The notes under the pieces: model-generated | The model's database searches: none | Told to the model about the DNA's origin: nothing | The model's input: the letters and a program-made list of their open reading frames with translations, nothing else | Sequence record: MT129654.1 | Length of the DNA stretch: 64,000 bases | Source of the DNA: Escherichia phage MN04 | Strand: one strand, 5' to 3' | Made by a program: the position numbers and the translations under genes | Shown here: positions 37,572 through 63,599 of the stretch, one piece after another | Numbering within the stretch: position 1 is the first letter of the stretch | How the letters are laid out: every line of letters starts with the position of its first letter

Positions 37572-37757
37572 ATGAAACGTTGTGAATTAATTAGAAATGT
37601 TACTGCACTGACCGCCGTTACTGCTTTTGGCTTTAGTATGTTTGCAGGATTCATGTTGGATTTGCTTACAACTTCCGAGAATACAATCTCTTTAGTAGTG
37701 GCATTCTTAATTGGTTCAATCTCTTTCGTTATGGATAAAATCTCTAAAGGTGAATAA
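37572..37757 (+). CDS. Small membrane protein (hypothetical)
   Basis: 61 aa from ATG 37572 (GGAG RBS); two hydrophobic helices. Confidence 0.45.
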   Translation: MKRCELIRNVTALTAVTAFGFSMFAGFMLDLLTTSENTISLVVAFLIGSISFVMDKISKGE

Positions 37758-38158
37758 TGAACGTTGAATATTATGTATATGCGGATTACGAAAATAATCC
37801 GTCTAAAGATGAAGATAATCGTTTAGGTGTTGATGCTTTTGAATCCCCTGCAGCAGCATGGCAATGGGTTGAAAGTACTGATATTCCTTACCGTTATATT
37901 GAAGTGGTAGACCATGCAGGAAACAAGTATCCTAAGGAAGCATATGTTCCTTCCGGAAAGGTAAATTTCCTTTTGTTTGCGGGTGATAATTATTATCCAC
38001 GCGGTGGGTATACTGATTTAATCGCTAAAGCCTTCTCTGAAGATGAACTGCACGATATCATTAAAGAAAACGAGAATAAGCCTCTTTACGGTTCTAATCG
38101 TTTTGGTTGGTGGCAGATTGTTAATGCCAATACCCACACTATTGTAGACGAGGGTTAA
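37757..38158 (+). CDS. Hypothetical protein
   Basis: 133 aa; ATG overlaps upstream stop (TAATG). Confidence 0.5.
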   Translation: MNVEYYVYADYENNPSKDEDNRLGVDAFESPAAAWQWVESTDIPYRYIEVVDHAGNKYPKEAYVPSGKVNFLLFAGDNYYPRGGYTDLIAKAFSEDELHDIIKENENKPLYGSNRFGWWQIVNANTHTIVDEG

Positions 38159-38449
38159 ATGTTATACGTTAAGGTTACTAATCCAGAGAATGGCTATAAA
38201 TCCGATCAGGTTGCAGCTGAGTTGTTGATTCGAAATTACGGCAAAGATGCTGTGCTTGATGTTCAACAGGTTAATATTGGCCGTAGTTCAAGCGATGTTA
38301 AACTCAAAGTTAACGGCCATCGCTATAATTCTGTTAACTTTACTTTTTATACTGCAACTGAAAATGGATTGGTCGAATACGACATCTTTAAAAATCCTTT
38401 GAAGATTGCTTCTATTAAACTTGATTATATTAATATGTGGCCACAATGA
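38159..38449 (+). CDS. Hypothetical protein
   Basis: 96 aa; tight spacing to upstream stop. Confidence 0.5.
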   Translation: MLYVKVTNPENGYKSDQVAAELLIRNYGKDAVLDVQQVNIGRSSSDVKLKVNGHRYNSVNFTFYTATENGLVEYDIFKNPLKIASIKLDYINMWPQ

Positions 38450-38922
38450 ATATTAAATTCGGACAAGTTATTCCTAAAGGTTATGCGATTGAAATTGAAA
38501 CCTGGGAAAATGATGGCGATAACTATAAAACCCAGACTATATTTGGCGTAGAAGAACAAGAAATCCAACAGTACAAATATATCCTAGAACTTTTCCATGG
38601 TTCGCATTGCAACAACCCGGATAAATGCGGTAATTCGGAATGGGACGTAGTTAAGCATTTGGTTATTGCTCACATTGAATCCGGTGTAAAATCAGGCCAA
38701 TTGACTCCTGAATTTTTAGATAAAGTCCTCGGTATCCAAGACTTAGAAGCCTTGCTGAACGATGACGAAGAAGAATACTACTTGAATGAAGCCCTTACTG
38801 AGCTCCTTGGTATGGCTTGTGAATATGGTGGCGATTTTATCCGTGCAATTTCTTATGTCAAGCTGTATATCATTGAAGAAGAAATTAAAATCCCTGATGT
38901 GAAAGCACTTGATATGCTTTAA
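38446..38922 (+). CDS. Hypothetical acidic protein
   Basis: ATG 38446 overlapping upstream stop (ATGA); 158 aa. Confidence 0.5.
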   Translation: MNIKFGQVIPKGYAIEIETWENDGDNYKTQTIFGVEEQEIQQYKYILELFHGSHCNNPDKCGNSEWDVVKHLVIAHIESGVKSGQLTPEFLDKVLGIQDLEALLNDDEEEYYLNEALTELLGMACEYGGDFIRAISYVKLYIIEEEIKIPDVKALDML

Positions 38923-39051
38923 GAATTATGTGATATTATTACTCTATCATTAATACCCTCTATTACCAAAGGTTCTTCCCTCAAAGAGCCTTTCATAATA
39001 GACAAGGTCTATTAATCAAACTTACTTTACTTAATTTTATTTGAGGTGTTT

Positions 39052-39318
39052 ATGTTAGTATTAAAATTAGCTTTTTATGACCCAGAAACCAAGACAACAA
39101 CTACTAAACGTTGTTCTATTTCATATGAATGCCAATTTGGCGAAGTTGAGACCGACGGCGAGCCCTTTATGGCAATTGCCGATAGCACATTCGCTAAACC
39201 AAAAATAATTCCACTAGTTAACGCTGCGGCTTATCTGGTTGCTCCTGAAGAAATGACTTATCATACAATTCAGCACATGGCTAAAGACGATAATGCTCCT
39301 GCTGGATTTGTAATTTAA
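39052..39318 (+). CDS. Hypothetical protein
   Basis: ATG 39052 with GAGGTG RBS (track start 39046 is GTG); ends 5 nt before first tRNA. Confidence 0.45.
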   Translation: MLVLKLAFYDPETKTTTTKRCSISYECQFGEVETDGEPFMAIADSTFAKPKIIPLVNAAAYLVAPEEMTYHTIQHMAKDDNAPAGFVI

Positions 39319-39323
39319 ATTAA

Positions 39324-39397
39324 GGCCCTGTAGCTGGACGGTCAAGCGAGCGACTCATAATCGCTGGATGGTGGTTCGATTCCACCCAGGGCCACCA
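39324..39397 (+). tRNA. tRNA-Met (anticodon CAU; could be Ile2 if lysidine-modified)
   Basis: Perfect 7-bp acceptor stem, anticodon stem AGCGA/TCGCT with loop CTCATAA, T-arm GGTGG-TTCGATT-CCACC, encoded CCA. Confidence 0.8.
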
Positions 39398-39401
39398 ATT
39401 T

Positions 39402-39476
39402 GGATGTGTAGCTCAGTGGTAGAGCAGTTGACTGTTAATCAATTGGTCCATGGTTCGAATCCATGCATGTCCGCCA
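39402..39476 (+). tRNA. tRNA-Asn (anticodon GUU)
   Basis: Cloverleaf: D-arm GCTC/GAGC, anticodon loop CTGTTAA, T-arm CATGG-TTCGAAT-CCATG, acceptor with two G-U pairs, CCA. Confidence 0.75.
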
Positions 39477-39480
39477 AATA

Positions 39481-39556
39481 CGAGGCATAGCTCAGAAGGA
39501 AGAGCAACGGTCTTCTAAACCGTAGGTCGTAGGTTCGATCCCTACTGTCTCGACCA
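39481..39556 (+). tRNA. tRNA-Arg (anticodon UCU)
   Basis: Cloverleaf: D-arm GCTC/GAGC, anticodon stem ACGGT/ACCGT loop CTTCTAA, T-arm GTAGG-TTCGATC-CCTAC, CCA. Confidence 0.85.
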
Positions 39557-39840
39557 AACAAGAAACCGGGTCGCTACCGGTAAGCCGTCGGACTGATGTT
39601 CCCTGAGTAAGGACTGACATTAACAAATCTTTACGATCTGTTAACGTCCCCTTACATCACAGCAGAAACGGCGCACCGAATTATCGATTCGAGGAAATAT
39701 CTTTGCCGTAAGCCGAGTAGCGTTTTTGACGGAACGTTCGGATATGGTCGAGATATGGCCTTTTAAAAATATTGAGTAGCGTCAACTACTTAATAACCGG
39801 GTTCGAATCCTGGCGTTTCGTACAAACACTTGCCTAGCAG
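39557..39840 (+). ncRNA. Candidate small stable RNA(s) or degenerate tRNA-like element after the tRNA cluster
   Basis: No ORF; tRNA-like T-arm (CCGGG-TTCGAAT-CCTGG) and 7-bp acceptor pairing 39730-36 with 39814-20; internal repeats CGGTAAGCCG and GAGTAGCG. Confidence 0.3.
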
Positions 39841-39872
39841 GTGGAACCCCGACAAGGTTACCCTAGGTTAAA

Positions 39873-39909
39873 GGCCCTTCCGAAAGGTTGGGCCTTTTTT
39901 GTATAAATA
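39873..39909 (+). repeat. Terminator hairpin plus late promoter cassette, copy 1
   Basis: GGCCCTTCCGAAAGGTTGGGCC, T-run, then GTATAAATA; near-identical copy at 40496. Confidence 0.7.
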
Positions 39910-39935
39910 TACAGTAAACTAACTTAGGAAATAAT

Positions 39936-40490
39936 ATGAAACTTTTAAAATATTTGAGTTGGATTCTGTTGGTCCCACTAGATTTTATCTCTATGGTTCT
40001 AGCCGTTATCCTTGCGCCTTTTGTGGTTCCTTTCCACAATAAAAAGACTGGTAAATTGCCGTACGGTTTTGATTGGATGATGACATACGATAATCCAATT
40101 GACGGTGACAAAGGTCATATTAAACGTTGGGCTAAAATCAGGAAAATGCCTGGCGGTGTTTATCTCCAGAGGGTAGCTTGGCTATGGCGAAATAAAGCTT
40201 ATAACTTTGCTTACCATAAACTCGGTCGCGATTGTAGCTCAGAATTCCATTATCGTGGTAATCCTGATGTGGAATCAGGTTCTCCTGATAAAGCTCACCA
40301 TGGTTGGTTGTGGATGTGGAATGATGACGCCTGGGGTGTATTTGCTTCAGTTCCTTATCTTAAGGTCGGTGGAATCACATTTTACCTTCGCGTGTACTGT
40401 GGCTGGAAGCTTAAGAGTCTTTTGTCTCGTAAAATCCCTAAAGCTATGTTAGCCTTCCACGTGAACCCGTTCCGGTTCTACAAGAACTGA
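39936..40490 (+). CDS. Membrane-anchored hypothetical protein (late-promoter driven)
   Basis: 184 aa; N-terminal TM helix (LSWILLVPLDFISMVLAVILAPFVVPF); Trp-rich; AGGAA RBS. Confidence 0.55.
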   Translation: MKLLKYLSWILLVPLDFISMVLAVILAPFVVPFHNKKTGKLPYGFDWMMTYDNPIDGDKGHIKRWAKIRKMPGGVYLQRVAWLWRNKAYNFAYHKLGRDCSSEFHYRGNPDVESGSPDKAHHGWLWMWNDDAWGVFASVPYLKVGGITFYLRVYCGWKLKSLLSRKIPKAMLAFHVNPFRFYKN

Positions 40491-40495
40491 TTTAC

Positions 40496-40531
40496 GGCCC
40501 TTCCGAAAGGTTGGGCCTTTTTGTATAAATA
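40496..40531 (+). repeat. Terminator hairpin plus late promoter cassette, copy 2
   Basis: Same 36-bp sequence as 39873-39909 with one fewer T. Confidence 0.7.
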
Positions 40532-40559
40532 GATAAGTTAATTAACACAGGAAACAATA

Positions 40560-41177
40560 ATGAAAACTTACAATGAATTTTTGAACGAAAGCGTTCTGAC
40601 TGAAGCCAGCGTGCGCATGACTAAAGATATGTGGCAAGCTGCTTATGATAAAATTTCCGGGACTAAAACCACTACCGAGTTCTTTAAAAACGTTTATGAT
40701 ATGTATGGTTTTGATACTAGTAGCCAGAAAGAATATTACAAAGCTTCCAAAGCTTTTAAAGATATCGTAGCCGGTGGCGCTACTAAGCCTGCTAAACCAG
40801 CTAAAGCTCCTGTTTCTAAACCCGTGGCTCAGACCAAAGTTGCAGCACCGAAACCGACACCTAAAGCAGAGCCTGTAAAAGAAGCTCCTAAACCTAAAAT
40901 CAAGTTCGACACCAGCACTATTGTTAAAAAATATAACCAGCTGGCTTCTTTGGTTTCTGAAATCGAATCCGAAACTAAACAACTCGTTCGAGAATTCAAC
41001 GCCCTTCGTAATGGGCAGCACATTAACAACCTGGATACCCCAGACCTCTATCGTCTTTACCTGACGGTTGAAGGCCTTAAGTATACCCAGCCTATGCACG
41101 AAGAAATTGATAACAAACTTCGTCAAGCCCGCCGCCTTGCAGGTGACGCAGCACAGTTCGAAAAGACCCGTAAATAA
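40560..41177 (+). CDS. Internal-protein-like protein with capsid targeting sequence and Pro/Ala/Lys-rich linker
   Basis: N-terminus MKTYNEFLNES; 'KPAKPAKAPVSKPVAQTKVAAPKPTPKAEPVKEAPKPK' linker; late promoter upstream. Confidence 0.65.
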   Translation: MKTYNEFLNESVLTEASVRMTKDMWQAAYDKISGTKTTTEFFKNVYDMYGFDTSSQKEYYKASKAFKDIVAGGATKPAKPAKAPVSKPVAQTKVAAPKPTPKAEPVKEAPKPKIKFDTSTIVKKYNQLASLVSEIESETKQLVREFNALRNGQHINNLDTPDLYRLYLTVEGLKYTQPMHEEIDNKLRQARRLAGDAAQFEKTRK

Positions 41178-41180
41178 TGA

Positions 41181-41203
41181 AAGGAGACTTTGGTCTCCTT
41201 TTA
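41181..41203 (+). terminator. Rho-independent terminator (AAGGAGAC-TTTG-GTCTCCTT then T-run)
   Basis: 8-bp stem plus T-run right after stop at 41177. Confidence 0.6.
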
Positions 41204-41236
41204 GGGGGTTTAAACTAAAAATAATTTCACAAAGTT

Positions 41237-41280
41237 GTTTACACCTCCTTTAAATATGATACTATAGACCTATCAAAACA
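41237..41280 (+). promoter_or_regulatory. Early promoter module
   Basis: GTTTACA ... ATGATACTATAGACCTATCAAAACA. Confidence 0.6.
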
Positions 41281-41300
41281 ACAGTGTGAAGGAGAGTAAA

Positions 41301-41564
41301 ATGGATAATTATGGTGAATTGTTTAATTTCTTTATGAAATGCGTTCCTGAAGAATTTGGTGCTACTGTTAACGATATTAAGGTTATCGGTCCTGAACACC
41401 CAGTGTATGAAACCTATGCAGTAATGGGTAACGAAGATGGACAGTGGTATACAATTAAAGTTGTGATTAATATGTTCTCAGCTGAAGGCTACGCCAAAAC
41501 GTCTACCAAAGTTTACCATGATAACGATTTTGATGCAGAAGATTATTTCAATAATATGAAATAA
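41301..41564 (+). CDS. Hypothetical protein
   Basis: ATG 41301 with GGAG RBS (track 41286 is GTG extension); 87 aa. Confidence 0.5.
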   Translation: MDNYGELFNFFMKCVPEEFGATVNDIKVIGPEHPVYETYAVMGNEDGQWYTIKVVINMFSAEGYAKTSTKVYHDNDFDAEDYFNNMK

Positions 41565-41566
41565 TT

Positions 41567-41596
41567 GTTTACATGGGCCCATGATTGAGATATTAT
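41567..41596 (+). promoter_or_regulatory. Early promoter candidate (GTTTACA ... TATTAT)
   Basis: GTTTACA, 18-bp spacer, TATTAT; GGGCCC-containing inverted repeat spans -10. Confidence 0.45.
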
Positions 41597-41621
41597 GAGC
41601 CCATAATTTGAGGAGAGCATA

Positions 41622-42020: not shown

Positions 42021-42023
42021 AAT

Positions 42024-42690: not shown

Positions 42691-42697
42691 TGTTACC

Positions 42698-42738: not shown

Positions 42739-43284
42739 ATGAGTTTATATGATGACCTGATATCAAATGTTGGCTGGTTTAAAAATAGTGGTCTTTCCCA
42801 TGAAACTAATTCGGTTCTTTATAGAATTCGCCAAGACCTAGGTTATTCTAATGATTTCTTAAGTCGAACAAGTAGCAGCCGTGGATATACTACCAAATTA
42901 CCCTTTATCTTTGCTTTAGCTGAAGACCTTTCTTTTGCAGAAGCTTTAGAAATTATTGACGTAAATCTGGGTATTCAACGGGTGGAATTCGCTGGACTAC
43001 GTTATTCAGTATACTCTTTAAATGAACCAAGCGATTATAAACAGCTTGTTGATGCTGATGATGATTATCACTTGGTATGCTATTTGATGTTAGAAAACGG
43101 TGACCACTTTGGTATGGTCGACCGCCGTCCGAGTTATTCGGATATAAAAAACTATGATAAAGATGAGCTTATTATTTTAGCCAACGAATACACATCAGAG
43201 AGTCGTAAACAGCAACGTAAACTTAATCGTTTTATTAAAGAATGCCGTGAATACGCTAAAGAGGTTCAAAATGGAGCGGCCTAG
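42739..43284 (+). CDS. Hypothetical protein
   Basis: 181 aa; GGAGGAGAGG RBS. Confidence 0.5.
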   Translation: MSLYDDLISNVGWFKNSGLSHETNSVLYRIRQDLGYSNDFLSRTSSSRGYTTKLPFIFALAEDLSFAEALEIIDVNLGIQRVEFAGLRYSVYSLNEPSDYKQLVDADDDYHLVCYLMLENGDHFGMVDRRPSYSDIKNYDKDELIILANEYTSESRKQQRKLNRFIKECREYAKEVQNGAA

Positions 43285-43624
43285 TCTTGCATCACATGTT
43301 TATCAATTGGCTGAATATAATATTGGTGACAATTTATTATTAGGGATTGCCACCGGTATGCTTGGTGGTTTGGTTGGTCTGGTAATGACCACGGTTATGG
43401 CTGCAATCGAAGGAGTCATGCCCGTTGAGATGGGTTTCTATATGATAATCGCTCCGGCTGTCGTGGCTTATTTTATCCCTCTCGTGTATGATATTTGCCA
43501 TACAAATGCTTTGAATGCTCCCATCCGTAAGAGATATGCTTTAGAGATGGCTAATTATAATGAGTATGTAAAACAAACCAAACGTAATGACCTTGAAACC
43601 TTTATTAAGGAATGTAAATCATGA
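43271..43624 (+). CDS. Small membrane protein (hypothetical)
   Basis: ATG 43271; two or three TM helices (LLLGIATGMLGGLVGLVMTTVMAAI...). Confidence 0.45.
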   Translation: MERPSLASHVYQLAEYNIGDNLLLGIATGMLGGLVGLVMTTVMAAIEGVMPVEMGFYMIIAPAVVAYFIPLVYDICHTNALNAPIRKRYALEMANYNEYVKQTKRNDLETFIKECKS

Positions 43625-43911
43625 ATAAAATTGAAATTGAAATCCCTGAATACAACGACGAGAAATCTGCAGAAAAAGCTATCTATGCTCTTCTGAATAA
43701 AGTAGATACCATCGAACATGAATGTGAAGCTATTGCCGATAAGTACGGTATTCAATTCGGAACAGGTGATTATGGCTCAGGACGTACATACTACCCCGTT
43801 GGTTATGAATGCTCACAGTGGTTTAAAGATGAAATTGAAAACAATGGTGGTGAAGTTGAAAATGGCGTCGTTACAGTTGGTGCCTGGGTCTCCTCTTCAG
43901 CATTATGCTAA
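43621..43911 (+). CDS. Member 1 of tandem small-protein family with W-V-S-S-S-x-x-C C-terminus
   Basis: 96 aa ending ...GAWVSSSALC; ATGA overlap with upstream gene. Confidence 0.55.
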   Translation: MNKIEIEIPEYNDEKSAEKAIYALLNKVDTIEHECEAIADKYGIQFGTGDYGSGRTYYPVGYECSQWFKDEIENNGGEVENGVVTVGAWVSSSALC

Positions 43912-43920
43912 GGAAACGCT

Positions 43921-44202
43921 ATGATGAATGATAATCATAACCACCCAGAGCTTCTGGCCGCAGTAAAAGAAATTCATGAAGCTATTCGTCGTGCCGAGGA
44001 AATTGCAGACAAATATGAGTCCCATTTTAATATATACCCTGCTCGCGGTATGGGCGGCGACTATTATTCTCCTGGTGCCTTGAAAGCTGACCTTGCCCAT
44101 TGGGAAGAAGATGGTCATCCTGAATGGGCTATTGTTAATACTCATGACTATACAACTGACCTGGAAAATGGTGGTTGGGTGTCCTCTTCTTCTGAATGTT
44201 AA
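43921..44202 (+). CDS. Member 2 of tandem small-protein family
   Basis: 93 aa ending ...ENGGWVSSSSEC; shares EAIADKY/EEIADKY with member 1. Confidence 0.55.
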   Translation: MMNDNHNHPELLAAVKEIHEAIRRAEEIADKYESHFNIYPARGMGGDYYSPGALKADLAHWEEDGHPEWAIVNTHDYTTDLENGGWVSSSSEC

Positions 44203-44211
44203 GGAAATATT

Positions 44212-44409
44212 ATGTCTCGTGAATTAGATTGTGCAATCCGAACTGCCGCCGCAGCTATTGAAAACGTTATCCAGATTTGTAAAGAAGAACGCGAAGAAGC
44301 TGATATCTATATCGATGGTGTTCGTGACTTAGAACGACATATCACGCTTTATAATGGTTGTATTACTATTAGTGGTACCTCTTGGGTATCATCCTCTTAC
44401 GAATGCTAA
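44212..44409 (+). CDS. Member 3 of tandem small-protein family
   Basis: 65 aa ending ...SGTSWVSSSYEC. Confidence 0.55.
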   Translation: MSRELDCAIRTAAAAIENVIQICKEEREEADIYIDGVRDLERHITLYNGCITISGTSWVSSSYEC

Positions 44410-44418
44410 GGTAATAAA

Positions 44419-44631
44419 ATGACTATTGATGAAATCGAAAAACAAATCCGTGAATTAGTACGTAAAGGCCAGTCCGTGGCTGACGAAACAGGTGAAGAGT
44501 TCCATGTTTCCGGACGTGGACAATACATTTCTCCAAAGAATCCGGAATATGATGATTACGAATGGGTCCGTGACGATTACGGTATCCCAGATGGTGAAGG
44601 TTTCTGGTTTACATCCTCTATGTCTTGCTAA
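44419..44631 (+). CDS. Member 4 of tandem small-protein family
   Basis: 70 aa ending ...GEGFWFTSSMSC. Confidence 0.55.
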   Translation: MTIDEIEKQIRELVRKGQSVADETGEEFHVSGRGQYISPKNPEYDDYEWVRDDYGIPDGEGFWFTSSMSC

Positions 44632-44642
44632 GGAATAAAAAA

Positions 44643-44867
44643 ATGACCGATATTGATGAATTAGAAAAAGCTGCCCTTGAACTGGCTGCCCTGTATAAGA
44701 AAGTAAAAGATATGGCTTCTGCTCAGGATTTTGGTGTTGAGCTAGATGATTATGACGGTGAAGTTCGTCTTGAAGATTGGCTGAATAGTTCTTGTTATGG
44801 TGAAGAAGCTGGTCGTACCTTCGTTGCTCGTCCCGATGGTAAAATCTGGTACCCGAGCTCATGCTAA
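44643..44867 (+). CDS. Member 5 of tandem small-protein family
   Basis: 74 aa from ATG 44643, ending ...GKIWYPSSC; TAAGGA stop-RBS junction as in other members. Confidence 0.5.
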   Translation: MTDIDELEKAALELAALYKKVKDMASAQDFGVELDDYDGEVRLEDWLNSSCYGEEAGRTFVARPDGKIWYPSSC

Positions 44868-47199: not shown

Positions 47200-47886
47200 A
47201 TGAACAGCCCGAAAACTTTTAATTCTCAAGCTCGTGCAGTAGGCGGTTTCGCCGGTAAAATTTCTAACGATAAAATCAAAAATGAAACTATGTTCTTCAA
47301 CAGCTCATTGGCTTTCGCTTTTGATAATGGTGGTCCTATTACTCGCAGCTTCATCATGAACCTGCCAGATGGGTGGAACACCGACCAGGTTGTATTTGAT
47401 TCTCGGGTTCATATGCTGATGCCTGGTTGGTATCCTGCTATCCCAGGTTATCACCATGATGATGTACCACGTCCGGATATTCCGGTTGGTCAACACTTTA
47501 TTACTGCAGGGCAACCTGATTATGATAATCCTCGATACCATTCTGAACATATTCTTGGTCTTGTTAACGCTGATGTGTGTCCTACTTATTTTGCAACCGG
47601 AACTGCGCAATTTAGCCAGATTCCTGAAGGCGAACTTATCTATCGCCAGTGGCATAAAGAAGTTCTGGAAAAAATCGAGTCCAATGAATTAACCAAGTGG
47701 GATGCTCCTGACCGCACATTGCTCCAGTTTGATTGGCAGACATGGCATACAGGTTCTCGTGCAGTAAGTAACGGTTGGCGCTGGTTTGGTCGTGTGTCTC
47801 GTAATACTGACCGTGTTAAAAAGATTACAAATGAAATCCGCGTTAATGCTCAAGTATATCTGGAATTCCCTATGGAGGGCTGGTAA
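47200..47886 (+). CDS. Hypothetical protein (His/Asp-rich, possible metal-binding)
   Basis: 228 aa; 'PGYHHDDVPRP' and 'YHSEHILG'; GAGGAAAATATT RBS. Confidence 0.5.
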   Translation: MNSPKTFNSQARAVGGFAGKISNDKIKNETMFFNSSLAFAFDNGGPITRSFIMNLPDGWNTDQVVFDSRVHMLMPGWYPAIPGYHHDDVPRPDIPVGQHFITAGQPDYDNPRYHSEHILGLVNADVCPTYFATGTAQFSQIPEGELIYRQWHKEVLEKIESNELTKWDAPDRTLLQFDWQTWHTGSRAVSNGWRWFGRVSRNTDRVKKITNEIRVNAQVYLEFPMEGW

Positions 47887-48473
47887 TGGCCCTTTATGAA
47901 CCAGGTTGTATGGGTGTTGATGTAAACTTCATCCGTCGGTCTGAAAATGCCGGAATCATTATCCCAAGTGGTGAGAATATGATTATTAAAAAGTCCTGGC
48001 GAAATATTGATGATGGTGATGAAGGAATTTCAGCCAGTACAATAGATTGGTCAGGTTGTACTGCTGAAATGAAACAACTTTTAATTGAGGAATATAAAAT
48101 GGGTTATATCGTAAATGGTTGGCAACCAGAACCTCATAAAGAACAGACTCCAGACCCATTGATTTGTTATAGCAAAAAATATGGCTTTCGTGCATGGAGT
48201 GATGAATACGACAAATTGGTGAGTTCTAGGTTCTATGTTTGGATGGGTATATTATTTTTCCCACTCCTAGGGTTTTTCCTGACAACAGATAATGACCTGC
48301 CTATTACTGTATTCGCTTCGGCCATGTCTGCAGCTATCTTAGGTCTTATTGCATCATTTTTATGGACCTCTGTTATCGAAGTACCTTTTCGTATTTCTAA
48401 AGTTAAAAAGGTGTATGACGATATAACCAAGAAAAATACATTAAACTCTTTTATTGAGGAATGCCGTAAATGA
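47886..48473 (+). CDS. Membrane protein (hypothetical)
   Basis: 195 aa; two TM helices in C-terminal half; ATG overlaps upstream stop. Confidence 0.5.
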   Translation: MALYEPGCMGVDVNFIRRSENAGIIIPSGENMIIKKSWRNIDDGDEGISASTIDWSGCTAEMKQLLIEEYKMGYIVNGWQPEPHKEQTPDPLICYSKKYGFRAWSDEYDKLVSSRFYVWMGILFFPLLGFFLTTDNDLPITVFASAMSAAILGLIASFLWTSVIEVPFRISKVKKVYDDITKKNTLNSFIEECRK

Positions 48474-49145: not shown

Positions 49146-49175
49146 TATAAATACCTCCTATAATCAGGAGGTATT

Positions 49176-50405: not shown

Positions 50406-50705
50406 ATGAAAACTTATCAAGAATTTATTACAGAAGCCAAAGCTCCTAAAGCATTCCAAATAGGTGTCCAAGGCACCTTAGACCAAGAATATGTTGATGC
50501 TATTGTAGCAAGCCTCGGTAAACAGGGTGTACAAGTGGATTTGGTTGATTTTACTAAAGGTAATACTTTTAATATTGTTACATCTAAAGGCTCTTTAGCT
50601 AAAGTTAAAAAGGCCTTTGGTGTAGCCCAAGCATACGAAATCGACCACTCCGAATTGGAAAATAAAGGTCGCCAGAACACAATTAAAGGTTCTGGTTCTT
50701 TCTAA
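50406..50705 (+). CDS. ipII: Internal protein II-like (capsid targeting sequence)
   Basis: 99 aa (T4 IPII about 100); N-terminus MKTYQEFITEA. Confidence 0.7.
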   Translation: MKTYQEFITEAKAPKAFQIGVQGTLDQEYVDAIVASLGKQGVQVDLVDFTKGNTFNIVTSKGSLAKVKKAFGVAQAYEIDHSELENKGRQNTIKGSGSF

Positions 50706-50801
50706 TAAAGGCAAGCCGGCCCTCTCCTCATGAACGTCGCGTCCTCTGAGTGATGGACCTTTCCCTACCTGTAATAAGGTCGAGCCCAAGTGCGGTAAAG
50801 G

Positions 50802-50830
50802 GTTTACATACGGATACATGGATGAATTAT
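50802..50830 (+). promoter_or_regulatory. Early promoter (GTTTACA, 17 bp, AATTAT)
   Basis: Hexamers with 17-bp spacer, 35 nt upstream of ATG 50866. Confidence 0.5.
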
Positions 50831-50865
50831 GTGCCAAGGAATGGCCCCACAACTAAGAGACAATT

Positions 50866-51411
50866 ATGAAAACGTTTTTAACCGGTAGTTATCTATCCCT
50901 GATGAATGCTTTTGCAAACCATTCTGATGCTAGAGTAGAACACATTTGTAATAGTGGGTTTTATGTACCCGATTCACCAACCCTGTTTAAAGAATGCTGC
51001 ACCTTAAAACTTGACGGCGGACGCCAATCTGGCAAAACAAGGGCAGTATCCATTTTTGCTACAGAATGGTTAGCTAATGGTGGCTCTATTGTTATTTTGT
51101 CTAATAACACGGCGTATGCTAATGTTTCGGCTACTGCAATCCGAAAAGAATATTTTAATAACCATACAGAAAGTATTAAGTACCGTTTGTACACTGATTC
51201 TGTTCGTAGTTTTATTGGTAACACTGCATGCAAATTCCGTGGATTATCACTTTCACGGGTTCTGTATATAATTGATGAGCCTGTTAAAACACCTGATATG
51301 GATAAGATTTATGATGCTCATATAAAGGTAGTCCAGAATTGCTGCCGAGCTCAATGCGTAGAAAGAAATCAAACCGCAAGACCTTTGTTTTTTGTGATAG
51401 GAATGCAATGA
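50866..51411 (+). CDS. P-loop NTPase (hypothetical)
   Basis: 181 aa; Walker A 'GGRQSGKT', Walker B 'LYIIDEP'. Confidence 0.55.
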   Translation: MKTFLTGSYLSLMNAFANHSDARVEHICNSGFYVPDSPTLFKECCTLKLDGGRQSGKTRAVSIFATEWLANGGSIVILSNNTAYANVSATAIRKEYFNNHTESIKYRLYTDSVRSFIGNTACKFRGLSLSRVLYIIDEPVKTPDMDKIYDAHIKVVQNCCRAQCVERNQTARPLFFVIGMQ

Positions 51412-55254: not shown

Positions 55255-55533
55255 ATGGACCTAAATTCAAAGATTTTAATTCTAGCGTTCGCTGTGGCCA
55301 TCTCTTATATTGTTCTTTTGCCCATCATGGATGATGCGGCTTACAAAAGAGAGATAGAAGTTGTAGCAGCGACGTATAATGCTAATAATAAAGAATGTCC
55401 TAATAAAAATGGAATGGATTTAATTAAAGCGCATTATATGCTTTCCATTACCTCGCCTATACAGAGGAATTGGGTTGAATATAATTTTAACGACGTGTTC
55501 TATTCTTATTGTCGTAAGCTTAAAAAGCTATAA
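55255..55533 (+). CDS. Small membrane protein (hypothetical)
   Basis: 92 aa; N-terminal TM helix. Confidence 0.45.
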   Translation: MDLNSKILILAFAVAISYIVLLPIMDDAAYKREIEVVAATYNANNKECPNKNGMDLIKAHYMLSITSPIQRNWVEYNFNDVFYSYCRKLKKL

Positions 55534-55626: not shown

Positions 55627-55920
55627 ATGGGTATTTTCCGTACAGTGGCTTGTATCCTTATGATTGGATGTTTAAGCCCAACATCTTCACTAGCAAACAA
55701 ATCCGACCCTAAATTGATGGACGCCTTTGCTAGTAGTGCGATGCCAGTTTATGCGCAAATGAGTAAACCTAGTGTAAAGGCCTCCGAAGACTACTGGGCT
55801 TATGTAACTGCTTCTTGGAAAATTTCAAATTGCAATACAATAGAGTCTTGCTCGATTGAAGGTCGGGCTATCGGAGAACGATACGCTAAACTAATGAAGG
55901 TAGATGATGAAATTCAATGA
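55627..55920 (+). CDS. Secreted protein or lipoprotein (hypothetical)
   Basis: Signal peptide MGIFRTVACILMIGCLSPTSSLA with lipobox-like LMIGC. Confidence 0.5.
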   Translation: MGIFRTVACILMIGCLSPTSSLANKSDPKLMDAFASSAMPVYAQMSKPSVKASEDYWAYVTASWKISNCNTIESCSIEGRAIGERYAKLMKVDDEIQ

Positions 55921-56811: not shown

Positions 56812-57068
56812 TGGCCGTTGGATTTGCTAAGGACGGAGCCGAACAGCTCGAAATGGAAGCGGTCGTTCAGGCCGCTATAGTACACGCCCGTAAGCAAGTA
56901 GCAGTTGAACGTGAATCGGCTAAATATTGTTTTGATTGCGATGAAGAGATTCCTGAAGCACGACGTCAAGCTATCAAAGGTGTGATATATTGTATAGGTT
57001 GTCAGTCAATGCATGATGAAATTTTTAAACGTGAGCCACGTAACTGTTGGCACAGGAGCATGAGATGA
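56811..57068 (+). CDS. TraR/DksA-type C4 zinc-finger protein
   Basis: CFDC-x17-CIGC (CxxC-x17-CxxC) spacing typical of the DksA/TraR family. Confidence 0.55.
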   Translation: MAVGFAKDGAEQLEMEAVVQAAIVHARKQVAVERESAKYCFDCDEEIPEARRQAIKGVIYCIGCQSMHDEIFKREPRNCWHRSMR

Positions 57069-57160
57069 TTTACTATCTTGAACCTTGGGCTTGGCTTACA
57101 ATGCTTATTGGTCCAGTTTTAATAGGTTTATTCTTTTCATGGCTAGCGAGGAAACTGTAA
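57065..57160 (+). CDS. Hydrophobic micro-peptide (31 aa), tentative
   Basis: MIYYLEPWAWLTMLIGPVLIGLFFSWLARKL; overlap-coupled on both sides (ATGA / TAATG). Confidence 0.3.
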   Translation: MIYYLEPWAWLTMLIGPVLIGLFFSWLARKL

Positions 57161-57938: not shown

Positions 57939-58391
57939 ATGATTATCAATTCAAACTCTTGGCACGTTAAATTACACGACCGTTTTTATGACCGTCATTC
58001 TCGACCGCACTCTTTGTGTGCTTATTTCTGGAAAATGGTTTGGGCTTGTTTTGCTTGTGCCATTGTTGCAGGTAGTACGCTTTTTGGATTAACTGTTGCA
58101 GGCGCTGGTGTATTAGAGCATTTCTTTGTATTAAGTACTCCCGTTCTGTTGAGTCTAGGGTTTGTTTTAGGGTTGATTGCAATAGCTCTTATTATTGCTC
58201 TATCCATTGGTTTGGCATTAGGTGCGATGAATTTACACGCGTGGTATGATGCACGTAGAGAAGAAAAGGAATGGCAACGTATTCAAGCTGAGCGTGAAGG
58301 CCGAGAAACTAAAGAAAATATCGTCGTCCAATACATTAAAGCTCGTAAATCTAAGATGTGTCCTGTAATCCACTTCGAGAACAAAGAATGA
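57939..58391 (+). CDS. Membrane protein (hypothetical)
   Basis: 150 aa; two long TM segments. Confidence 0.5.
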   Translation: MIINSNSWHVKLHDRFYDRHSRPHSLCAYFWKMVWACFACAIVAGSTLFGLTVAGAGVLEHFFVLSTPVLLSLGFVLGLIAIALIIALSIGLALGAMNLHAWYDARREEKEWQRIQAEREGRETKENIVVQYIKARKSKMCPVIHFENKE

Positions 58392-59398: not shown

Positions 59399-59594
59399 AG
59401 AAGAAATTAACGTCTTTCTATCGTATGGAAGACCTCATAAAACTCGACGTTGGTATCTTGAAGCTGTCTGTAAAGAAACCGGACGTCGAGTCAATGTCAA
59501 ATACGTATGTAAACCGTCTCCCAAACAAACTCGCAGGTTTGTTAACTGGGCTATCAATACTATAAGATTCCATAATTTTTGGAGTGCAATATAA
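59355..59594 (+). CDS. Small basic ORF, questionable
   Basis: TTG-initiated, overlaps 3' end of upstream gene; terminator follows directly. Confidence 0.25.
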   Translation: MKRCTLTTTTLITAKEEINVFLSYGRPHKTRRWYLEAVCKETGRRVNVKYVCKPSPKQTRRFVNWAINTIRFHNFWSAI

Positions 59595-59616
59595 GGGCCG
59601 TATGGCCCTTTTTTTG
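59595..59616. terminator. Bidirectional terminator (GGGCC-GTAT-GGCCC then T7)
   Basis: Separates plus-strand early unit from convergent minus-strand collagen-like gene. Confidence 0.65.
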
Positions 59617-59617
59617 T

Positions 59618-60373
59618 TTACGAAGTCACTGTTTGTTCGGCTACTAACAATGCAGAGGTTATTGTAAAGTTGCCGCCATTTGGCGTAACAGTTATAGCTG
59701 TACCATTGGTTGCCATTGGCCCATCTTTATCAATGCTAAAGAACGTCGTAAAAGACAAAATATCTGTAGCATTTTCTGGACGGTTCTGTATATAGGAGTT
59801 TCCGTTGGTTCCAACGAAATTTAATGTTATACTTCGAGCTTGCGAGACTCCTGTAAAATTACCAATAAGGTTGAGTTTAAACATTAGGCTTCTGTCTTGC
59901 TTATATGGCCACATCTTATCATCAGCGGTTCTAAAAAACGGAGATAGAGTCCCTGCTGTCGGCGGAATCCCCTTTAAAATACTAATTATGTTTGAAGCCG
60001 CACCATTAGTTAATAGAACGTTTATACCACTCCAAAACACTTCTGATTTTCTTCTCTTTCCTGCTGTTGCAGTCAAAAAATCATCTACTGTTCCACTATT
60101 ACCCTCATCAATCCATAATTGGTATGAAGACTTTCCTGGTTCACCTTGAACTCCCGGGTCGCCAGGATTTCCCGGGTCACCTTTATCACCTTTTTGTCCA
60201 GGAGGTCCTGGAATCTGGGTAACTGATTTTGACATCGTTTGAAAGAACCGTTCGCTGTTATCAGTTACGGTATTAGGAAGGACTACCGTTGAACCAAAAA
60301 GATGCCAGTTATCGTCTAATGCTAACTGGACCTTCTCGTTCAATTCATCGATGGTTTTTGCTGATAAAATCAT
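59618..60373 (-). CDS. Collagen-like repeat protein (putative virion fiber or decoration protein), late gene
   Basis: 251 aa; G-X-Y run 'GPPGQKGDKGDPGNPGDPGVQGEPG'; late promoter TATAAATA plus AAGGAG RBS upstream. Confidence 0.65.
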   Translation of the reverse strand: MILSAKTIDELNEKVQLALDDNWHLFGSTVVLPNTVTDNSERFFQTMSKSVTQIPGPPGQKGDKGDPGNPGDPGVQGEPGKSSYQLWIDEGNSGTVDDFLTATAGKRRKSEVFWSGINVLLTNGAASNIISILKGIPPTAGTLSPFFRTADDKMWPYKQDRSLMFKLNLIGNFTGVSQARSITLNFVGTNGNSYIQNRPENATDILSFTTFFSIDKDGPMATNGTAITVTPNGGNFTITSALLVAEQTVTS

Positions 60374-60395
60374 AAACCTTCTCCTTTAAATAAAA

Positions 60396-60403
60396 TATTT
60401 ATA
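60396..60403 (-). promoter_or_regulatory. Late promoter TATAAATA for collagen-like gene
   Basis: TATAAATA on minus strand about 23 nt upstream of ATG 60373. Confidence 0.55.
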
Positions 60404-60409
60404 AAAGTA

Positions 60410-60450
60410 GTTTACACTTTCGTAGAGCATGTTATTATGGACCTATCAAA
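60410..60450 (+). promoter_or_regulatory. Early promoter module
   Basis: GTTTACA ... TGTTATTATGGACCTATCAAATC. Confidence 0.55.
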
Positions 60451-60475
60451 TCTACTGAGTGAAACGGAGAATATA

Positions 60476-61456
60476 ATGTTAACTATCAAAATCAACAAAG
60501 GTATCTATCGCGGTAATGAAATCTCTGGTACGTTCATGAGTTCAGGTAAAACCTGGTTCCCTAATAAAATTCATGAATCCGAAGCTCATCTCGGTGATGG
60601 CAAGGTATTTGTACAGATTGATGGTGTTGAACGTGGTGTATGGGTGTTCAAATGTGACGTTGAAATGGAAGGTGTTGAAGCTCCTGCAATGGTTACTGAA
60701 TCCGCTGAAGAAATGAAACATCGCATCAACAAACGTTTTAAAGTAATGAACATGATGACTAACGGAATCATTGATGGTAAAATTCGTTCCCTTATCATCT
60801 CTGGTGCCGCAGGTATCGGTAAAACGTATTCTTTGGATAAAGCATTACAAAATGCCCACGAAAATGAAACTATCGAATATAAATCAATCAACGGAAAGAT
60901 TAGTGGAATCGGTCTTTACGAGCAGCTTTGGAATAACCGCGGCCCTAATAGTGTTCTTCTTATTGATGATGTTGATGTATTCTCTGACATGGATATCCTG
61001 AACCTTCTTAAAGCTGCATTGGATACCGGTGAGAAACGTAAGGTGTGCTGGAGCACTTCAAGTTCTTATCTCGATGATAAAAATATCGATAAAGAATTCG
61101 AATACGAAGGCACCATCGTGTTCATCACCAACGTTGATATTGATCGTGAATTAGAGCGTGGAACTAAACTTGCTCCACACCTCCAAGCTTTAGTATCTCG
61201 TTCAGTTTACTTAGACCTCGGAGTTCACTCGAATGAAGAGATTATGGTTCGTGTTGAAGACGTTATCCTGTCCACCGATATGATGCAAAACCGAGGTCTG
61301 ACTGATGCTGAGACTTATCAAGCTCTAGCATGGATGAAGGCCAATGTATCTCGTCTTCGTAACGTATCATTACGTACAGCTCTTTATCTGGCGGACTTCA
61401 TTGCCACCGATAAAAATGACTGGAGCGAAATCGCCGAAGTTACACTTCTGAAATAA
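60476..61456 (+). CDS. P-loop ATPase, AAA+-like (hypothetical)
   Basis: ATG 60476 with GGAG RBS; Walker A 'GAAGIGKT', Walker B 'VLLIDDVD'. Confidence 0.6.
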   Translation: MLTIKINKGIYRGNEISGTFMSSGKTWFPNKIHESEAHLGDGKVFVQIDGVERGVWVFKCDVEMEGVEAPAMVTESAEEMKHRINKRFKVMNMMTNGIIDGKIRSLIISGAAGIGKTYSLDKALQNAHENETIEYKSINGKISGIGLYEQLWNNRGPNSVLLIDDVDVFSDMDILNLLKAALDTGEKRKVCWSTSSSYLDDKNIDKEFEYEGTIVFITNVDIDRELERGTKLAPHLQALVSRSVYLDLGVHSNEEIMVRVEDVILSTDMMQNRGLTDAETYQALAWMKANVSRLRNVSLRTALYLADFIATDKNDWSEIAEVTLLK

Positions 61457-61466
61457 AGGTGAAATT

Positions 61467-61808
61467 ATGTTCGAACAATTTATTTACAATCTTTTTAATG
61501 CAGGCCAAACTTTTTCCAAAGCCATGAAACAGTCCGTCGAGGACTATGATAAAGAAGTTATCGACGGATATACCAATAGAGTTTATAAAACGGATTGTGA
61601 AGAAGGAGACTACAGGAGACTGCTCTTGGCAGCGAAGACCCAAGCCTTAATAAATCTAGACCGTAAGCAGGTTAAGTTGGCAGGCGACTTCAGAGATGAA
61701 CTCTGTGCCATCAGGAACGAATACCTTATTCGTATTAAACACCAACGGAAAGAGAACACACAATCCGCCTGGTTTAGTGGGCAAGCCGGTGAAAAAAGTT
61801 TTTATTAG
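61467..61808 (+). CDS. Hypothetical protein
   Basis: 113 aa. Confidence 0.45.
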   Translation: MFEQFIYNLFNAGQTFSKAMKQSVEDYDKEVIDGYTNRVYKTDCEEGDYRRLLLAAKTQALINLDRKQVKLAGDFRDELCAIRNEYLIRIKHQRKENTQSAWFSGQAGEKSFY

Positions 61809-61810
61809 TT

Positions 61811-61851
61811 GTTTACATCTCCAGTAGAAATGATACTATAGACCTATCAAC
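61811..61851 (+). promoter_or_regulatory. Early promoter module with flanking inverted repeat
   Basis: GTTTACA; CTCCAGTAG ... TACTATAGACCTATCAA ... CTACTGGAG. Confidence 0.6.
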
Positions 61852-61865
61852 TACTGGAGGTTATC

Positions 61866-62390
61866 ATGAACGCTAAAGATATTTTTTCATTGATTAATTT
61901 TAACAATGGTAATTTCAAATCTGAAAAACAAAGCAAGTTCTTTAACGACGTTGCTTGTGGTAATGAGATTACCGTATCTGGAGGAGAGATTTACAAAAGC
62001 CGTTGGAACTGGATTGCTATCATCGATTCAGTTGGTATTGTAGAGCTCTATAAAAACACCAACAAAAAACGTACTCTTCACTGGAGTCGTGAAACCAACC
62101 AAGCTTATCAAGCTGAGCGTAATAAACGTTTAATGCCTACTGAATCTGACCTGGCAAACGTTAAATCAGATATCGCTTATTTTGATAACTTGATTGCCGA
62201 ACAACAAGCGGTTATTGATAAGTTTGACGAAATCAAAGCTTGTAAAGAGATTCCTGAATTCATGCGGGAATCAGTAAACGAACAGTACGCCCTCACTTCA
62301 GGTCGTATTGAGCAGTACAAATCACAACGAGCTGAACGCCAAGCTCTGCTTCAGAAATTTGAAGAGCGTTTAAAGACGGTTCTCGCATAA
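61866..62390 (+). CDS. Hypothetical protein
   Basis: 174 aa; helical C-terminal region. Confidence 0.5.
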   Translation: MNAKDIFSLINFNNGNFKSEKQSKFFNDVACGNEITVSGGEIYKSRWNWIAIIDSVGIVELYKNTNKKRTLHWSRETNQAYQAERNKRLMPTESDLANVKSDIAYFDNLIAEQQAVIDKFDEIKACKEIPEFMRESVNEQYALTSGRIEQYKSQRAERQALLQKFEERLKTVLA

Positions 62391-62392
62391 AC

Positions 62393-62430
62393 GCTTTATA
62401 CCAAGGATGGTATAATGGTTCTAGGTTCTT
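62393..62430 (+). promoter_or_regulatory. MotA-dependent middle promoter candidate
   Basis: GCTTTA box, 12-bp spacer, TATAAT 62411-16, conserved GGTTCTAGGTTCTT downstream. Confidence 0.5.
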
Positions 62431-62453
62431 AATTACTTACTGAGGAAATTATT

Positions 62454-63299
62454 ATGTCACAAGCAATTAATCAAATTCGTTCTGAAGTTAAAAAAGTTGT
62501 TAAATTTGGTCGTATTCCGAGTTCTAAAGAAGTGGTTGAAAAGGTCCTATATATGATGTGGGACAAGTTCAACGTTTGTACTGTTAAAGATGACTTCACT
62601 AAAATCTTTGACAAGACTAAAGGTTCGTTTACGTTAGAAGACCGAGTCATGAAAACTCTTCGTAAAACAGGTATGTTGTCTCGTGCTAATGCCAAAATTA
62701 TTCTTAAAAATTATAACAAAGGCTACGACCTCTATGGTCGTTTAATCCCGGCGATGACATTTGATGAAGTTGTTAAAGACCTTAATACTAATCAACGTCG
62801 TCTACTGGCCCTTGGTGCTCGCCTTGCAAAAGGTCAAGATAAACAAATGACCTTTAAAACCAATGGTTCAGGCGATTGGATTATCTTTAATATTGTTAAC
62901 CATCCAAGAAATGAAAACGAGTATACTATTTCCCATTACAGTGGGTGTCAATATGACAACTGGAAGTTCCATCTCCGATTAGCCCTGTCTGAATTAGAAC
63001 AGCACGGTGTTCTTAGTTTTGGTGATGCTGAAACTGGAATGGGTCAGCGTATTAAACTTTATAAAATTAAAGACCTGGCTGAAGAGCATTCAGAACAAGC
63101 TCCTAAAATGGAACCTGTACCAGTGCGCAGCAATGAGAAACATCAAGCCCAGATTGAGTATTTTAGCAATTTGCTTACTTGCTTGAATGTTACAATCCAA
63201 CAACAAGATGATGAGATTTTCCGACTCTCTGGTCTGAATGCCAAAGCTAAGGCTGAACGCCAGAAATATATCGATATCCTAAATCTTCTTAAGGATTAA
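62454..63299 (+). CDS. Hypothetical protein
   Basis: 281 aa; GAGGAAATTATT RBS. Confidence 0.5.
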   Translation: MSQAINQIRSEVKKVVKFGRIPSSKEVVEKVLYMMWDKFNVCTVKDDFTKIFDKTKGSFTLEDRVMKTLRKTGMLSRANAKIILKNYNKGYDLYGRLIPAMTFDEVVKDLNTNQRRLLALGARLAKGQDKQMTFKTNGSGDWIIFNIVNHPRNENEYTISHYSGCQYDNWKFHLRLALSELEQHGVLSFGDAETGMGQRIKLYKIKDLAEEHSEQAPKMEPVPVRSNEKHQAQIEYFSNLLTCLNVTIQQQDDEIFRLSGLNAKAKAERQKYIDILNLLKD

Positions 63300-63301
63300 T
63301 T

Positions 63302-63382
63302 ATGGAATGGCTCACTGTTCTTGGTTATGTAATCGTAGCCACGGGTGTTCTGTGGCTAATTTTCTCAAACATTATAGGTTAA
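63302..63382 (+). CDS. Hydrophobic micro-peptide (26 aa), tentative
   Basis: MEWLTVLGYVIVATGVLWLIFSNIIG; tightly packed between genes. Confidence 0.3.
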   Translation: MEWLTVLGYVIVATGVLWLIFSNIIG

Positions 63383-63383
63383 T

Positions 63384-63599
63384 ATGGAAATCTTAGGTTT
63401 TATTCTCCTTTACTTTGTGCTAGGATTTATGACGACCTTTATCATTCATAAATCGGGTGATTGGAATCCAATCGAAATTGAATCAAGCTATGATGCAGTA
63501 TTCATTACACTAGTATGGCCTATGTTTTGGATAGTGGGCATTATAATGTGTATCGCATGGCCTTTCGCTAAATTCTATGAAAAATTATTTGGACTTTAA
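63384..63599 (+). CDS. Small membrane protein (hypothetical)
   Basis: 71 aa; two TM helices. Confidence 0.4.
   Translation: MEILGFILLYFVLGFMTTFIIHKSGDWNPIEIESSYDAVFITLVWPMFWIVGIIMCIAWPFAKFYEKLFGL

Follow-up and report, generated by a model that had tools for sequence, protein, structure and literature searches.

The window analysed here, the whole stretch of 64,000 nucleotides (nt) from Escherichia phage MN04 (sequence record MT129654.1), is by its sequence the DNA of a Dhakavirus, a T-even coliphage of the JS98/JS10/MN04 type. This placement is based on the nucleotide identity to JS98 and JS10 (97-99% over sub-regions); the segment from 37 to 61 kb retrieved more than 1000 T-even phage records by megablast, the best of them at ca. 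92-93% identity (C6, IME08, Bp7, and MX01). Our subject is a set of genes for small hydrophobic proteins in the interval 37572-63599, nine of which had been listed in an earlier note as membrane-protein open reading frames (ORFs) of 26-195 amino acids (aa), and to which the antiholin gene rI has to be added. They lie within the + strand tract of 36.5-64 kb that corresponds to the tRNA–e–vs–tk–rI–mobD–nrdC accessory cluster of T4, an assignment for which the annotated records of IME08 and T4 were compared and 54 T4 proteins were searched by blastp. The gene order matching that of T4 is 57B - ipI-like - trna.4/.3/.2 - tRNAs - e.8...e.2 - nudE - e - ipIII/ipII - vs.8...vs - tk.4...tk - rI - rI.-1 - mobD.x - nrdC.11...nrdC.6. 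The ten genes are the following (TM, transmembrane).

37572-37757, + strand: Trna.4 orthologue, 61 aa, two TM segments forming a hairpin, K/R at each terminus (N-in/C-in topology predicted)
39936-40490, + strand: DUF7338 protein, 184 aa, predicted N-terminal TM helix (residues ca. 9-33) followed by a globular domain of helices plus a beta-sheet
43271-43624, + strand: 117-aa e.3-like membrane protein, in which two TM segments are followed by a C-terminal tail rich in K/R that ends FIKECKS
47886-48473, + strand: e.2 orthologue, 195 aa, an N-terminal soluble part of ca. 115 aa, two TM segments and a tail ending FIEECRK
55255-55533, + strand: 92-aa protein with a strongly hydrophobic N-terminal signal-anchor, then a helical domain of ca. 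60 aa
55627-55920, + strand: 97-aa antiholin RI (lysis inhibition), whose N-terminal signal/SAR-like segment is weakly hydrophobic
57065-57160, + strand: 31-aa single-TM micropeptide MIYYLEPWAWLTMLIGPVLIGLFFSWLARKL, predicted N-out/C-in, with a GGAG Shine-Dalgarno
57939-58391, + strand: 150-aa polytopic membrane protein with about 3 TM segments and a charged C-terminal helix
63302-63382, + strand: 26-aa hydrophobic micropeptide MEWLTVLGYVIVATGVLWLIFSNIIG, with an AAGGA Shine-Dalgarno
63384-63599, + strand: 71-aa two-TM protein, with 1-nt gaps to its neighbours on both sides

The genes as a set

Comparison with related phages, for which 49 loci were fetched around nrdC.11 and e.6, showed all ten to behave as real genes under purifying selection, the micro-ORFs of 31 and 26 aa included. 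By homology, one of them is the RI antiholin and three are orthologues or paralogues of T4 Trna.4, e.2, and e.3; the remaining ones belong to families restricted to phages, with a function that sequence comparison left unassigned.

The nine ORFs of the earlier note were all present at their coordinates, with ATG starts and strongly hydrophobic segments. Every one had at least one 19-residue window with a Kyte-Doolittle mean of at least 1.6, and on the Hessa scale (applied independently of position) the nine scored 1.4 or lower against 4.3 or higher for all other genes in the region, a clean split into two groups, so that the list of strongly hydrophobic products was complete. The translational coupling claimed for several of them was also borne out, as most are joined to a neighbour by ATGA or TAATG overlaps or by gaps of 1-2 nt (at 37757, 43271/43621, 47886/48470, 57065/57160, 58388, and 63302/63384/63601), and recognisable Shine-Dalgarno motifs were found on the hydrophobic ORFs. 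These genes had been called numerous, which does not hold if enrichment is meant: hydrophobic products were 10 of the 61 + strand genes (16%, RI included), and the same measure gave 7 of 54 (13%) for the homologous region of T4.

Among the non-gene ORFs of 25-60 aa in the region, 36 of 196 (18%, and 29% of those on the + strand) pass the same hydrophobicity threshold, and the hydrophobicity of a short ORF is therefore weak evidence by itself. It is conservation, not hydrophobicity, that by our comparisons lifts the nine ORFs above chance. Eight of them matched PHROG or Pfam families with E values from 1e-23 to 1e-80 (T4 Trna.4, DUF7338, e.3-like, e.2, and PHROGs 6298, 944, 7899, and 12165), and scans of NCBIfam and PADLOC gave only sub-threshold noise. 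Several of the nine are not anonymous: 37572 (T4 Trna.4), 47886 (e.2), 43271 (e.3-like), and 39936 (DUF7338) can be named.

Seven strong T4-type early promoters (GTTTAC-N-TG-TACTAT) are directed along the + strand of the cluster and would drive most of the ten genes, whose proteins would be translated by coupling in polycistronic transcripts. To describe the whole as an early region is nevertheless too broad and does not suit 39936, which is preceded by a terminator-like hairpin and a TATAAATA late-promoter motif. This motif was found upstream of 39936 (at 39902-39909), 40560, the lysozyme gene e (49176; motif at 49146), and rI (at 55529, conserved in relatives), and the DUF7338 gene and rI may be transcribed also, or instead, from late promoters.

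The two micro-ORFs

The 31-aa ORF overlaps an upstream DksA/TraR zinc-finger gene (ATGA) and a downstream DUF7189 gene (TAATG), matches phrog_12165 (E 1e-23) and is annotated in VR7 (VR7ORF105c), TU01, ST0, and SA79RD. Of 16 related genomes from three genera, 15 have it intact with exactly 31 codons, the only loss being a deletion in vB_EcoM_005, and it is retained despite 1-nt shifts of the junction (IME281 and QL01) and a different upstream gene (IME08 and the Mosigviruses). Over ten unique nucleotide versions the ratio of nonsynonymous to synonymous polymorphism (pN/pS) was 0.19 in frame, against 0.54 and 0.72 in the other two frames; the corresponding ratio of substitution rates (dN/dS) calculated with six unique sequences did not discriminate between frames, and became discriminating once Mosigvirus and other records were added. 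These versions encode seven distinct peptides, in which all changes are hydrophobic except L11S, T12I, and the A/T states at position 14. In the Gapriverviruses the peptide is conserved at ca. 90% of its amino acids, vs. ca. 55% for the product of the downstream gene. In more distant T4-like phages the 31-aa ORF is missing and the genes that flank it are directly adjacent, from which we take it to be a clade-specific insertion. A scan of IMG/VR for the motif YYLEPWAW returned only the same nine Dhakavirus and Gaprivervirus genomes and no wider distribution. In the Mosigviruses a further annotated micro-ORF of ca. 36-40 aa lies just downstream of the DUF7189 gene, at a place occupied by mobD.1 in the window (coordinates in the fetched loci: SA79RD 752-862, ST0 740-862, and TU01 752-862).

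The 26-aa ORF begins 2 nt past the stop of nrdC.6 and ends 1 nt ahead of the next start. It matched no PHROG or Pfam family, and was found in 12 compared genomes (the window included), being annotated in only two of them (vB_EcoM_RZ and DK-13) and left unannotated in JS98, dhaeg, CUA3, and MN01. Its twelve distinct nucleotide versions differ at 6, 2, and 12 sites by codon position, and pN/pS was 0.12 in frame vs. 1.0 and 5.2 in the other frames, a substitution pattern that amounts to a clear coding signature. At the same time the ORF is cleanly absent from VR5, QL01, IME08, IME341, and vB_EcoM_005 and carries a frame-breaking internal deletion in VR25, which indicates that it is dispensable; within this clade it was absent or broken in 6 of 11 IMG/VR loci. 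An origin as a duplicate of the N-terminus of the adjacent 71-aa gene was rejected, as the nucleotide and protein alignment scores fell within the shuffle distribution and no repeat was found. The start junctions of the two ORFs, both TTAAT(T)ATGGAA, have an exact 7-nt stretch in common (TATGGAA; 11 of 12 nt with one indel), and a deletion between them would yield the arrangement of VR5 and QL01, which weakly suggests a route for the gain or loss of the micro-ORF.

RI, the T4 relatives and the larger proteins

The earlier note had stated that none of the proteins here was recognisably Imm, t, or rI. For Imm and t this was confirmed for the nine listed ORFs, but the statement overlooks rI, which is not one of the nine and is present in the interval, at 55627-55920. 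The product of this ORF matched the Pfam family PF24205, “T4-like virus antiholin,” with 88.7 bits (cut-off 27; E 2e-25), phrog_1246, “lysis inhibition” (E 2e-29), and T4 RI by blastp (E 5e-8). It resembles T4 RI in its length of 97 aa, its position between tk and rI.-1 and, by prediction, in a weakly hydrophobic N-terminal export segment and a Cys-containing periplasmic domain, and differs from it in being just 25% identical; binding to the holin is a prediction from homology. The order tk (54675) - 55255 - rI (55627) - rI.-1 (55904) is to be compared with tk - rI.1 - rI - rI.-1 in T4, and rI homologues occur in nearly all of the T4-like loci fetched. The N-terminal segment FRTVACILMIGCLSP, with a maximal 19-residue Kyte-Doolittle mean of 1.56 and a Hessa score of 4.3, falls between the TM and the soluble proteins; such weak hydrophobicity, as expected for a releasable signal anchor, is probably why rI had been omitted.

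In place of the unrelated soluble rI.1 of T4, the window has between tk and rI the gene of the 92-aa protein (phrog_6298, E 2e-37), which has only 4 homologue clusters in 5.8 billion proteins and was found in Dhaka- and Gapriverviruses only. The N-terminal hydrophobic segment has diverged in the Gapriverviruses, and the domain is retained together with its two invariant cysteines, C48 and C86. The AlphaFold2 (AF2) model (pLDDT 84) consists of three helices, and a fold search with it gave no PDB match and only generic helical matches (E of 0.7 or above). We predict a signal-anchored, disulfide-bonded periplasmic domain. That the protein might be a paralogue of RI was considered and rejected (hhalign probability 1.4%, and no RI in the fold search).

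Three of the membrane proteins have counterparts in T4. The product of 37572 is 70% identical to T4 Trna.4 over 61 of 61 aa (phrog_1692, E 1e-33), its stop overlaps the start of trna.3 (TAATG) and the synteny is that of T4 (ipI-like gene - trna.4 - trna.3 - trna.2 - tRNAs), with 37757 and 38159 matching trna.3 and trna.2. It is kept in all 10 Dhakavirus and Gaprivervirus loci and at ca. 50% identity in more distant T4-like phages, and a weaker sigma-70-like match (TTTACA-N16-GATACT, 37506-37535) lies directly upstream. The 43271 gene, overlapping with genes on both sides, matched T4 e.3 by blastp (E 5e-8, 21% identity) and phrog_2330 (E 1e-45), with a weak cross-match to phrog_2203, which is the e.2 family, and its product is conserved at 52-91% in 10 relatives. 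The start of 47886 overlaps the preceding stop and its stop the following start; it matched T4 e.2 (E 1e-14) and phrog_2203, “membrane protein” (E 1e-70). Compared with T4 e.2, which is annotated at 102 aa and looks truncated, the protein of the window retains the full TM-plus-tail part and has a 31-aa N-terminal extension, kept in frame among relatives even across a 3-codon indel. When the 195-aa protein was used as tblastn query, the match to T4 e.2 (T4 record 23482-23961) continued ca. 170 nt beyond the annotated stop, so that the T4 copy looks truncated or interrupted.

When the whole window was translated in six frames, the motif F[IV]KEC[RK] had exactly three occurrences, each of them at or close to the C-terminus of a protein: the e.5-like (42739-43284), the e.3-like (43271-43624), and the e.2 (47886-48473) protein. 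T4 e.3, e.4, and e.5 bear the same tail. To judge by its sequence, this tail seems to be a cytoplasmic module that the soluble and the membrane proteins of the e.2-e.5 group have in common and that links them. T4 Trna.4, e.2, e.3, and e.4 are predicted membrane proteins of unknown function from the tRNA-e region, with which the products of 37572, 47886, and 43271 share the TM hairpin and the gene order, the tail being common to the e group. By similarity, TM hairpin and tail, 47886 and 43271 belong with the e.2/e.3/e.4 membrane proteins of T4. Behind the e.3-like gene (43621-44867), five genes in tandem encode small soluble proteins that are paralogues of one another (96, 93, 65, 70, and 80 aa) and have no Pfam family, each with a terminal cysteine (WVSSSALC, WVSSSSEC, WVSSSYEC, WFTSSMSC, and WYPSSC).

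The DUF7338 protein (39936) matched PF24027 with 212.6 bits (cut-off 27), residues 1-183 aligning to positions 1-179 of the 180 in the profile, as well as phrog_2143 (E 1e-79; 38 homologue clusters), and contains the invariant motifs T-x-D-N...G-D-x-G-H, W-L-W-R-N, and G-W-K. Its AF2 model reached a pLDDT of 94.3, with no PDB fold match (best E 0.2, TM-score 0.12) and with BFVD matches confined to uncharacterised phage proteins, so that fold was ruled out as a clue to function; one database source names a homologue “holin,” a label given free of evidence. The gene is present in 6 of 10 related loci. Upstream of it (39870-39936) lies the terminator-like hairpin (CCTTCCGAAAGG...TTTTTT), followed by the TATAAATA motif, which is kept in 4 of 6 relatives, and because of these two signals the gene is probably late rather than early. 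Three tRNA genes at 39324-39556 (Met-CAT, Asn-GTT, and Arg-TCT) are the same in IME08, and some 380 nt with no called gene separate them from the DUF7338 gene, at the place of the small stable RNAs C and D of T4.

The 150-aa protein, 100% identical to a phage MN04 protein, matched phrog_944, “membrane protein” (E 7e-56; 70 homologue clusters). Its gene, the stop of which overlaps the start of nrdC.11, stands where T4 has the homing endonuclease gene mobD, and it was found directly upstream of nrdC.11 in 30 of 35 T4-like loci, with identities down to 26%. The 71-aa protein (phrog_7899, E 3e-32), omitted from the JS98 annotation, is a conserved feature of Dhaka- and Gapriverviruses, in which its gene follows nrdC.6, and has counterparts of 27-37% identity in more distant T4-like phages.

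Some further observations concern other genes of the cluster. The + strand ORFs of 36.5-64 kb yielded no homologue of denV (endonuclease V), a gene located between ipII and vs.8 in IME08 and T4 (expected site 50406-50866). The vs.8 gene is apparently split (50750-51411) into a 39-aa ORF (50750-50869) matching residues 1-18 of T4 Vs.8 and a 181-aa ORF in a different frame (50866-51411) matching residues 41-219. Vs (53264) has a signal-peptide-like N-terminus too. The sole minus-strand gene of the cluster (59618-60373, between nrdC.11 and nrdC.10) encodes 250 aa that include an Sf6-type tail-needle-knob domain (PF16532, E 5e-32) as well as a collagen-like repeat, a structural-type gene that is odd for an early accessory region.

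Interpretation and significance

We consider it quite probable that these are ten unrelated, conserved and dispensable accessory genes for small inner-membrane or exported proteins, gathered in a plastic early/accessory cluster, and not one system. That they are dispensable is deduced from their variable presence among close relatives, as with the DUF7338 gene (6 of 10 loci), the 26-aa ORF (absent or broken in 6 of 11), and the 31-aa ORF, deleted in one genome. T-even phages have long been known for many small dispensable membrane-protein genes of unknown function in plastic regions. The TM helices would insert the proteins into the host inner membrane, where they would act through protein-protein contacts with membrane proteins of the host or the phage. 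The antiholin role of RI is the only mechanism that can be assigned from sequence: by the established mechanism, its periplasmic domain would bind the periplasmic domain of the T holin and delay lysis. For the others exclusion, lysis timing, envelope remodelling, and anti-defence are candidate processes among which sequence does not choose, and it likewise does not decide on the exclusion, lysis-inhibition, or host-takeover roles suggested in the earlier note. That the genes are dispensable and lie in a hyperplastic region would suit an adaptive role, for example in exclusion, lysis timing, or anti-defence. Along these lines, non-essential ORFans with adaptive roles abound in the hyperplastic regions of T4-type genomes (PMC2839356), and nrdC.1, a gene of the T4 nrdC cluster, has recently been reported to inhibit the Septu defence system (bioRxiv 10.1101/2025.11.20.689424). 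A literature search gave nothing specific on Trna.4, mobD.2, nrdC.7, DUF7338, JS98 membrane proteins, or ribosome profiling of T4 small proteins.

Several points weigh against this interpretation or limit it. Beyond RI the mechanism is argued by analogy, no functional homology having been found for nine of the ten, and the expression and localisation of all ten are predicted from sequence, the TM calls being based on hydrophobicity scales and AF2 helices rather than on a dedicated topology predictor. The nucleotide sequence of the 31-aa ORF is unusually conserved (18 variable sites in 93 nt), and the constraint could act in part on RNA or on coupling and not on the peptide. About half of the close relatives lack the 26-aa ORF, and in one it has decayed, so that any function is weak or conditional.

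There are three other explanations to be considered. One would be that the ORFs are chance hydrophobic frames or annotation artefacts, given how common hydrophobic short ORFs are in AT-rich sequence (the 18% of non-gene ORFs mentioned above) and that the JS98 annotation omits both 63302 and 63384; in view of the family matches, the orthologues at 26-70% identity in distant T4-like phages, the coding-type substitutions in both micro-ORFs and the confident DUF7338 model (pLDDT 94), we regard this as effectively refuted. An improbable alternative, limited to the two micro-ORFs, is that they are spacer or coupling elements, their frames being kept so that translation terminates beside the downstream start and their hydrophobicity being a by-product of T-rich sequence. 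Each does fill exactly the space between two genes, its start and stop overlapping or abutting those of its neighbours, with the downstream Shine-Dalgarno inside the micro-ORF; 29% of spurious + strand ORFs of their size are equally hydrophobic, the 26-aa ORF can be dispensed with (5 close relatives cleanly lack it, and in VR25 it is broken), and distant phages join the flanking genes without the 31-aa ORF. However, a coupling device alone needs no conserved amino-acid sequence, and what we observed is frame-specific substitution (pN/pS of 0.12 and 0.19, against 0.5-5.2 out of frame, with the 6/2/12 distribution of sites in the 26-aa ORF), replacements that mostly preserve hydrophobicity, and a fixed length (31 aa in 15 genomes and 26 aa in 11 of 12).

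The remaining alternative, which we deem unlikely, is that some of the proteins are functional equivalents of Imm or Sp, diverged or analogous, or extra lysis-timing factors, the 92-aa protein and the 31-aa peptide above all. The proteins by which T-even phages bring about exclusion and lysis inhibition are small and located in the membrane or the periplasm, and T4 Imm and Sp, small early proteins of this kind, represent the functional class suggested by the earlier note; besides, the 92-aa gene is directly upstream of rI and its product has, like RI, an export signal and conserved cysteines. Against this, seven candidates had no match to Pfam Imm_superinfect even at E <= 10, and with E <= 0.01 as the limit there was none for any of the nine; no holin family was among the Pfam matches of any candidate, and neither profile-profile comparison nor fold search relates the 92-aa family to RI. 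T4 Sp had blastp E values of at least 1.5 against all candidates and no tblastn match anywhere in the window. With T4 Imm neither blastp nor tblastn gave anything significant, the best being the 31-aa peptide at 20 bits. Its ungapped local alignment to residues 20-46 of Imm is suggestive, with a score of 41 that only 1.3% of shuffles reach, but this is not significant after ca. 40 comparisons, has no Pfam support and pairs a loop of Imm with the TM core of the peptide, and the candidate was rejected as an Imm fragment. Furthermore, T4 Imm and Sp differ from the candidates in topology, with no detectable homology to any of them, and imm and sp map elsewhere in the T4 genome (near genes 42/43 and 61).

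For the single-pass micropeptides, analogy makes helix-helix binding to a larger membrane protein the most likely mode of action, as in AcrZ or MgrB, the type of architecture in which a small protein acts by binding a larger membrane one. Like the bacterial AcrZ, MgrB, MgtS, and KdpF, both products are below 50 aa (31 and 26), with a single TM segment formed by one hydrophobic core, are encoded in what would be polycistronic mRNAs, and are conserved as peptides (pN/pS 0.19 and 0.12); unlike them, they are phage-encoded and limited to three genera of E. coli T-even phages, and no sequence similarity links the two groups. A further and rather doubtful idea is that the 31-aa peptide, more conserved than its neighbours in Dhaka-, Gapriver-, and Mosigviruses, and perhaps the 26-aa one, could modulate a host inner-membrane protein (a transporter, sensor kinase, or protease) and, separately, that the F[IV]KEC[RK] tails of the e.2, e.3, and e.5-like proteins could dock a common partner as one membrane complex. 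If true, host-binding micropeptides would be the phage counterpart of bacterial small-protein regulators.

Under the reading that we prefer, that of separate accessory genes, the set is ordinary, typical in number and already catalogued in public records and family databases, with a mild novelty confined to the comparative support for the two micropeptides, and it changes little for biology at large. What is gained is the correction that rI is present in the interval and that the DUF7338 gene is probably late. Both micro-ORFs, of a type often skipped by gene callers, behave as protein-coding and are reasonable targets for small-protein studies. The best candidates for a role in exclusion, lysis timing, or anti-defence would be the 92-aa protein encoded next to rI and predicted to be exported, the 150-aa protein, which is widely conserved ahead of nrdC.11, and the DUF7338 protein, with its confident model unlike any solved structure.

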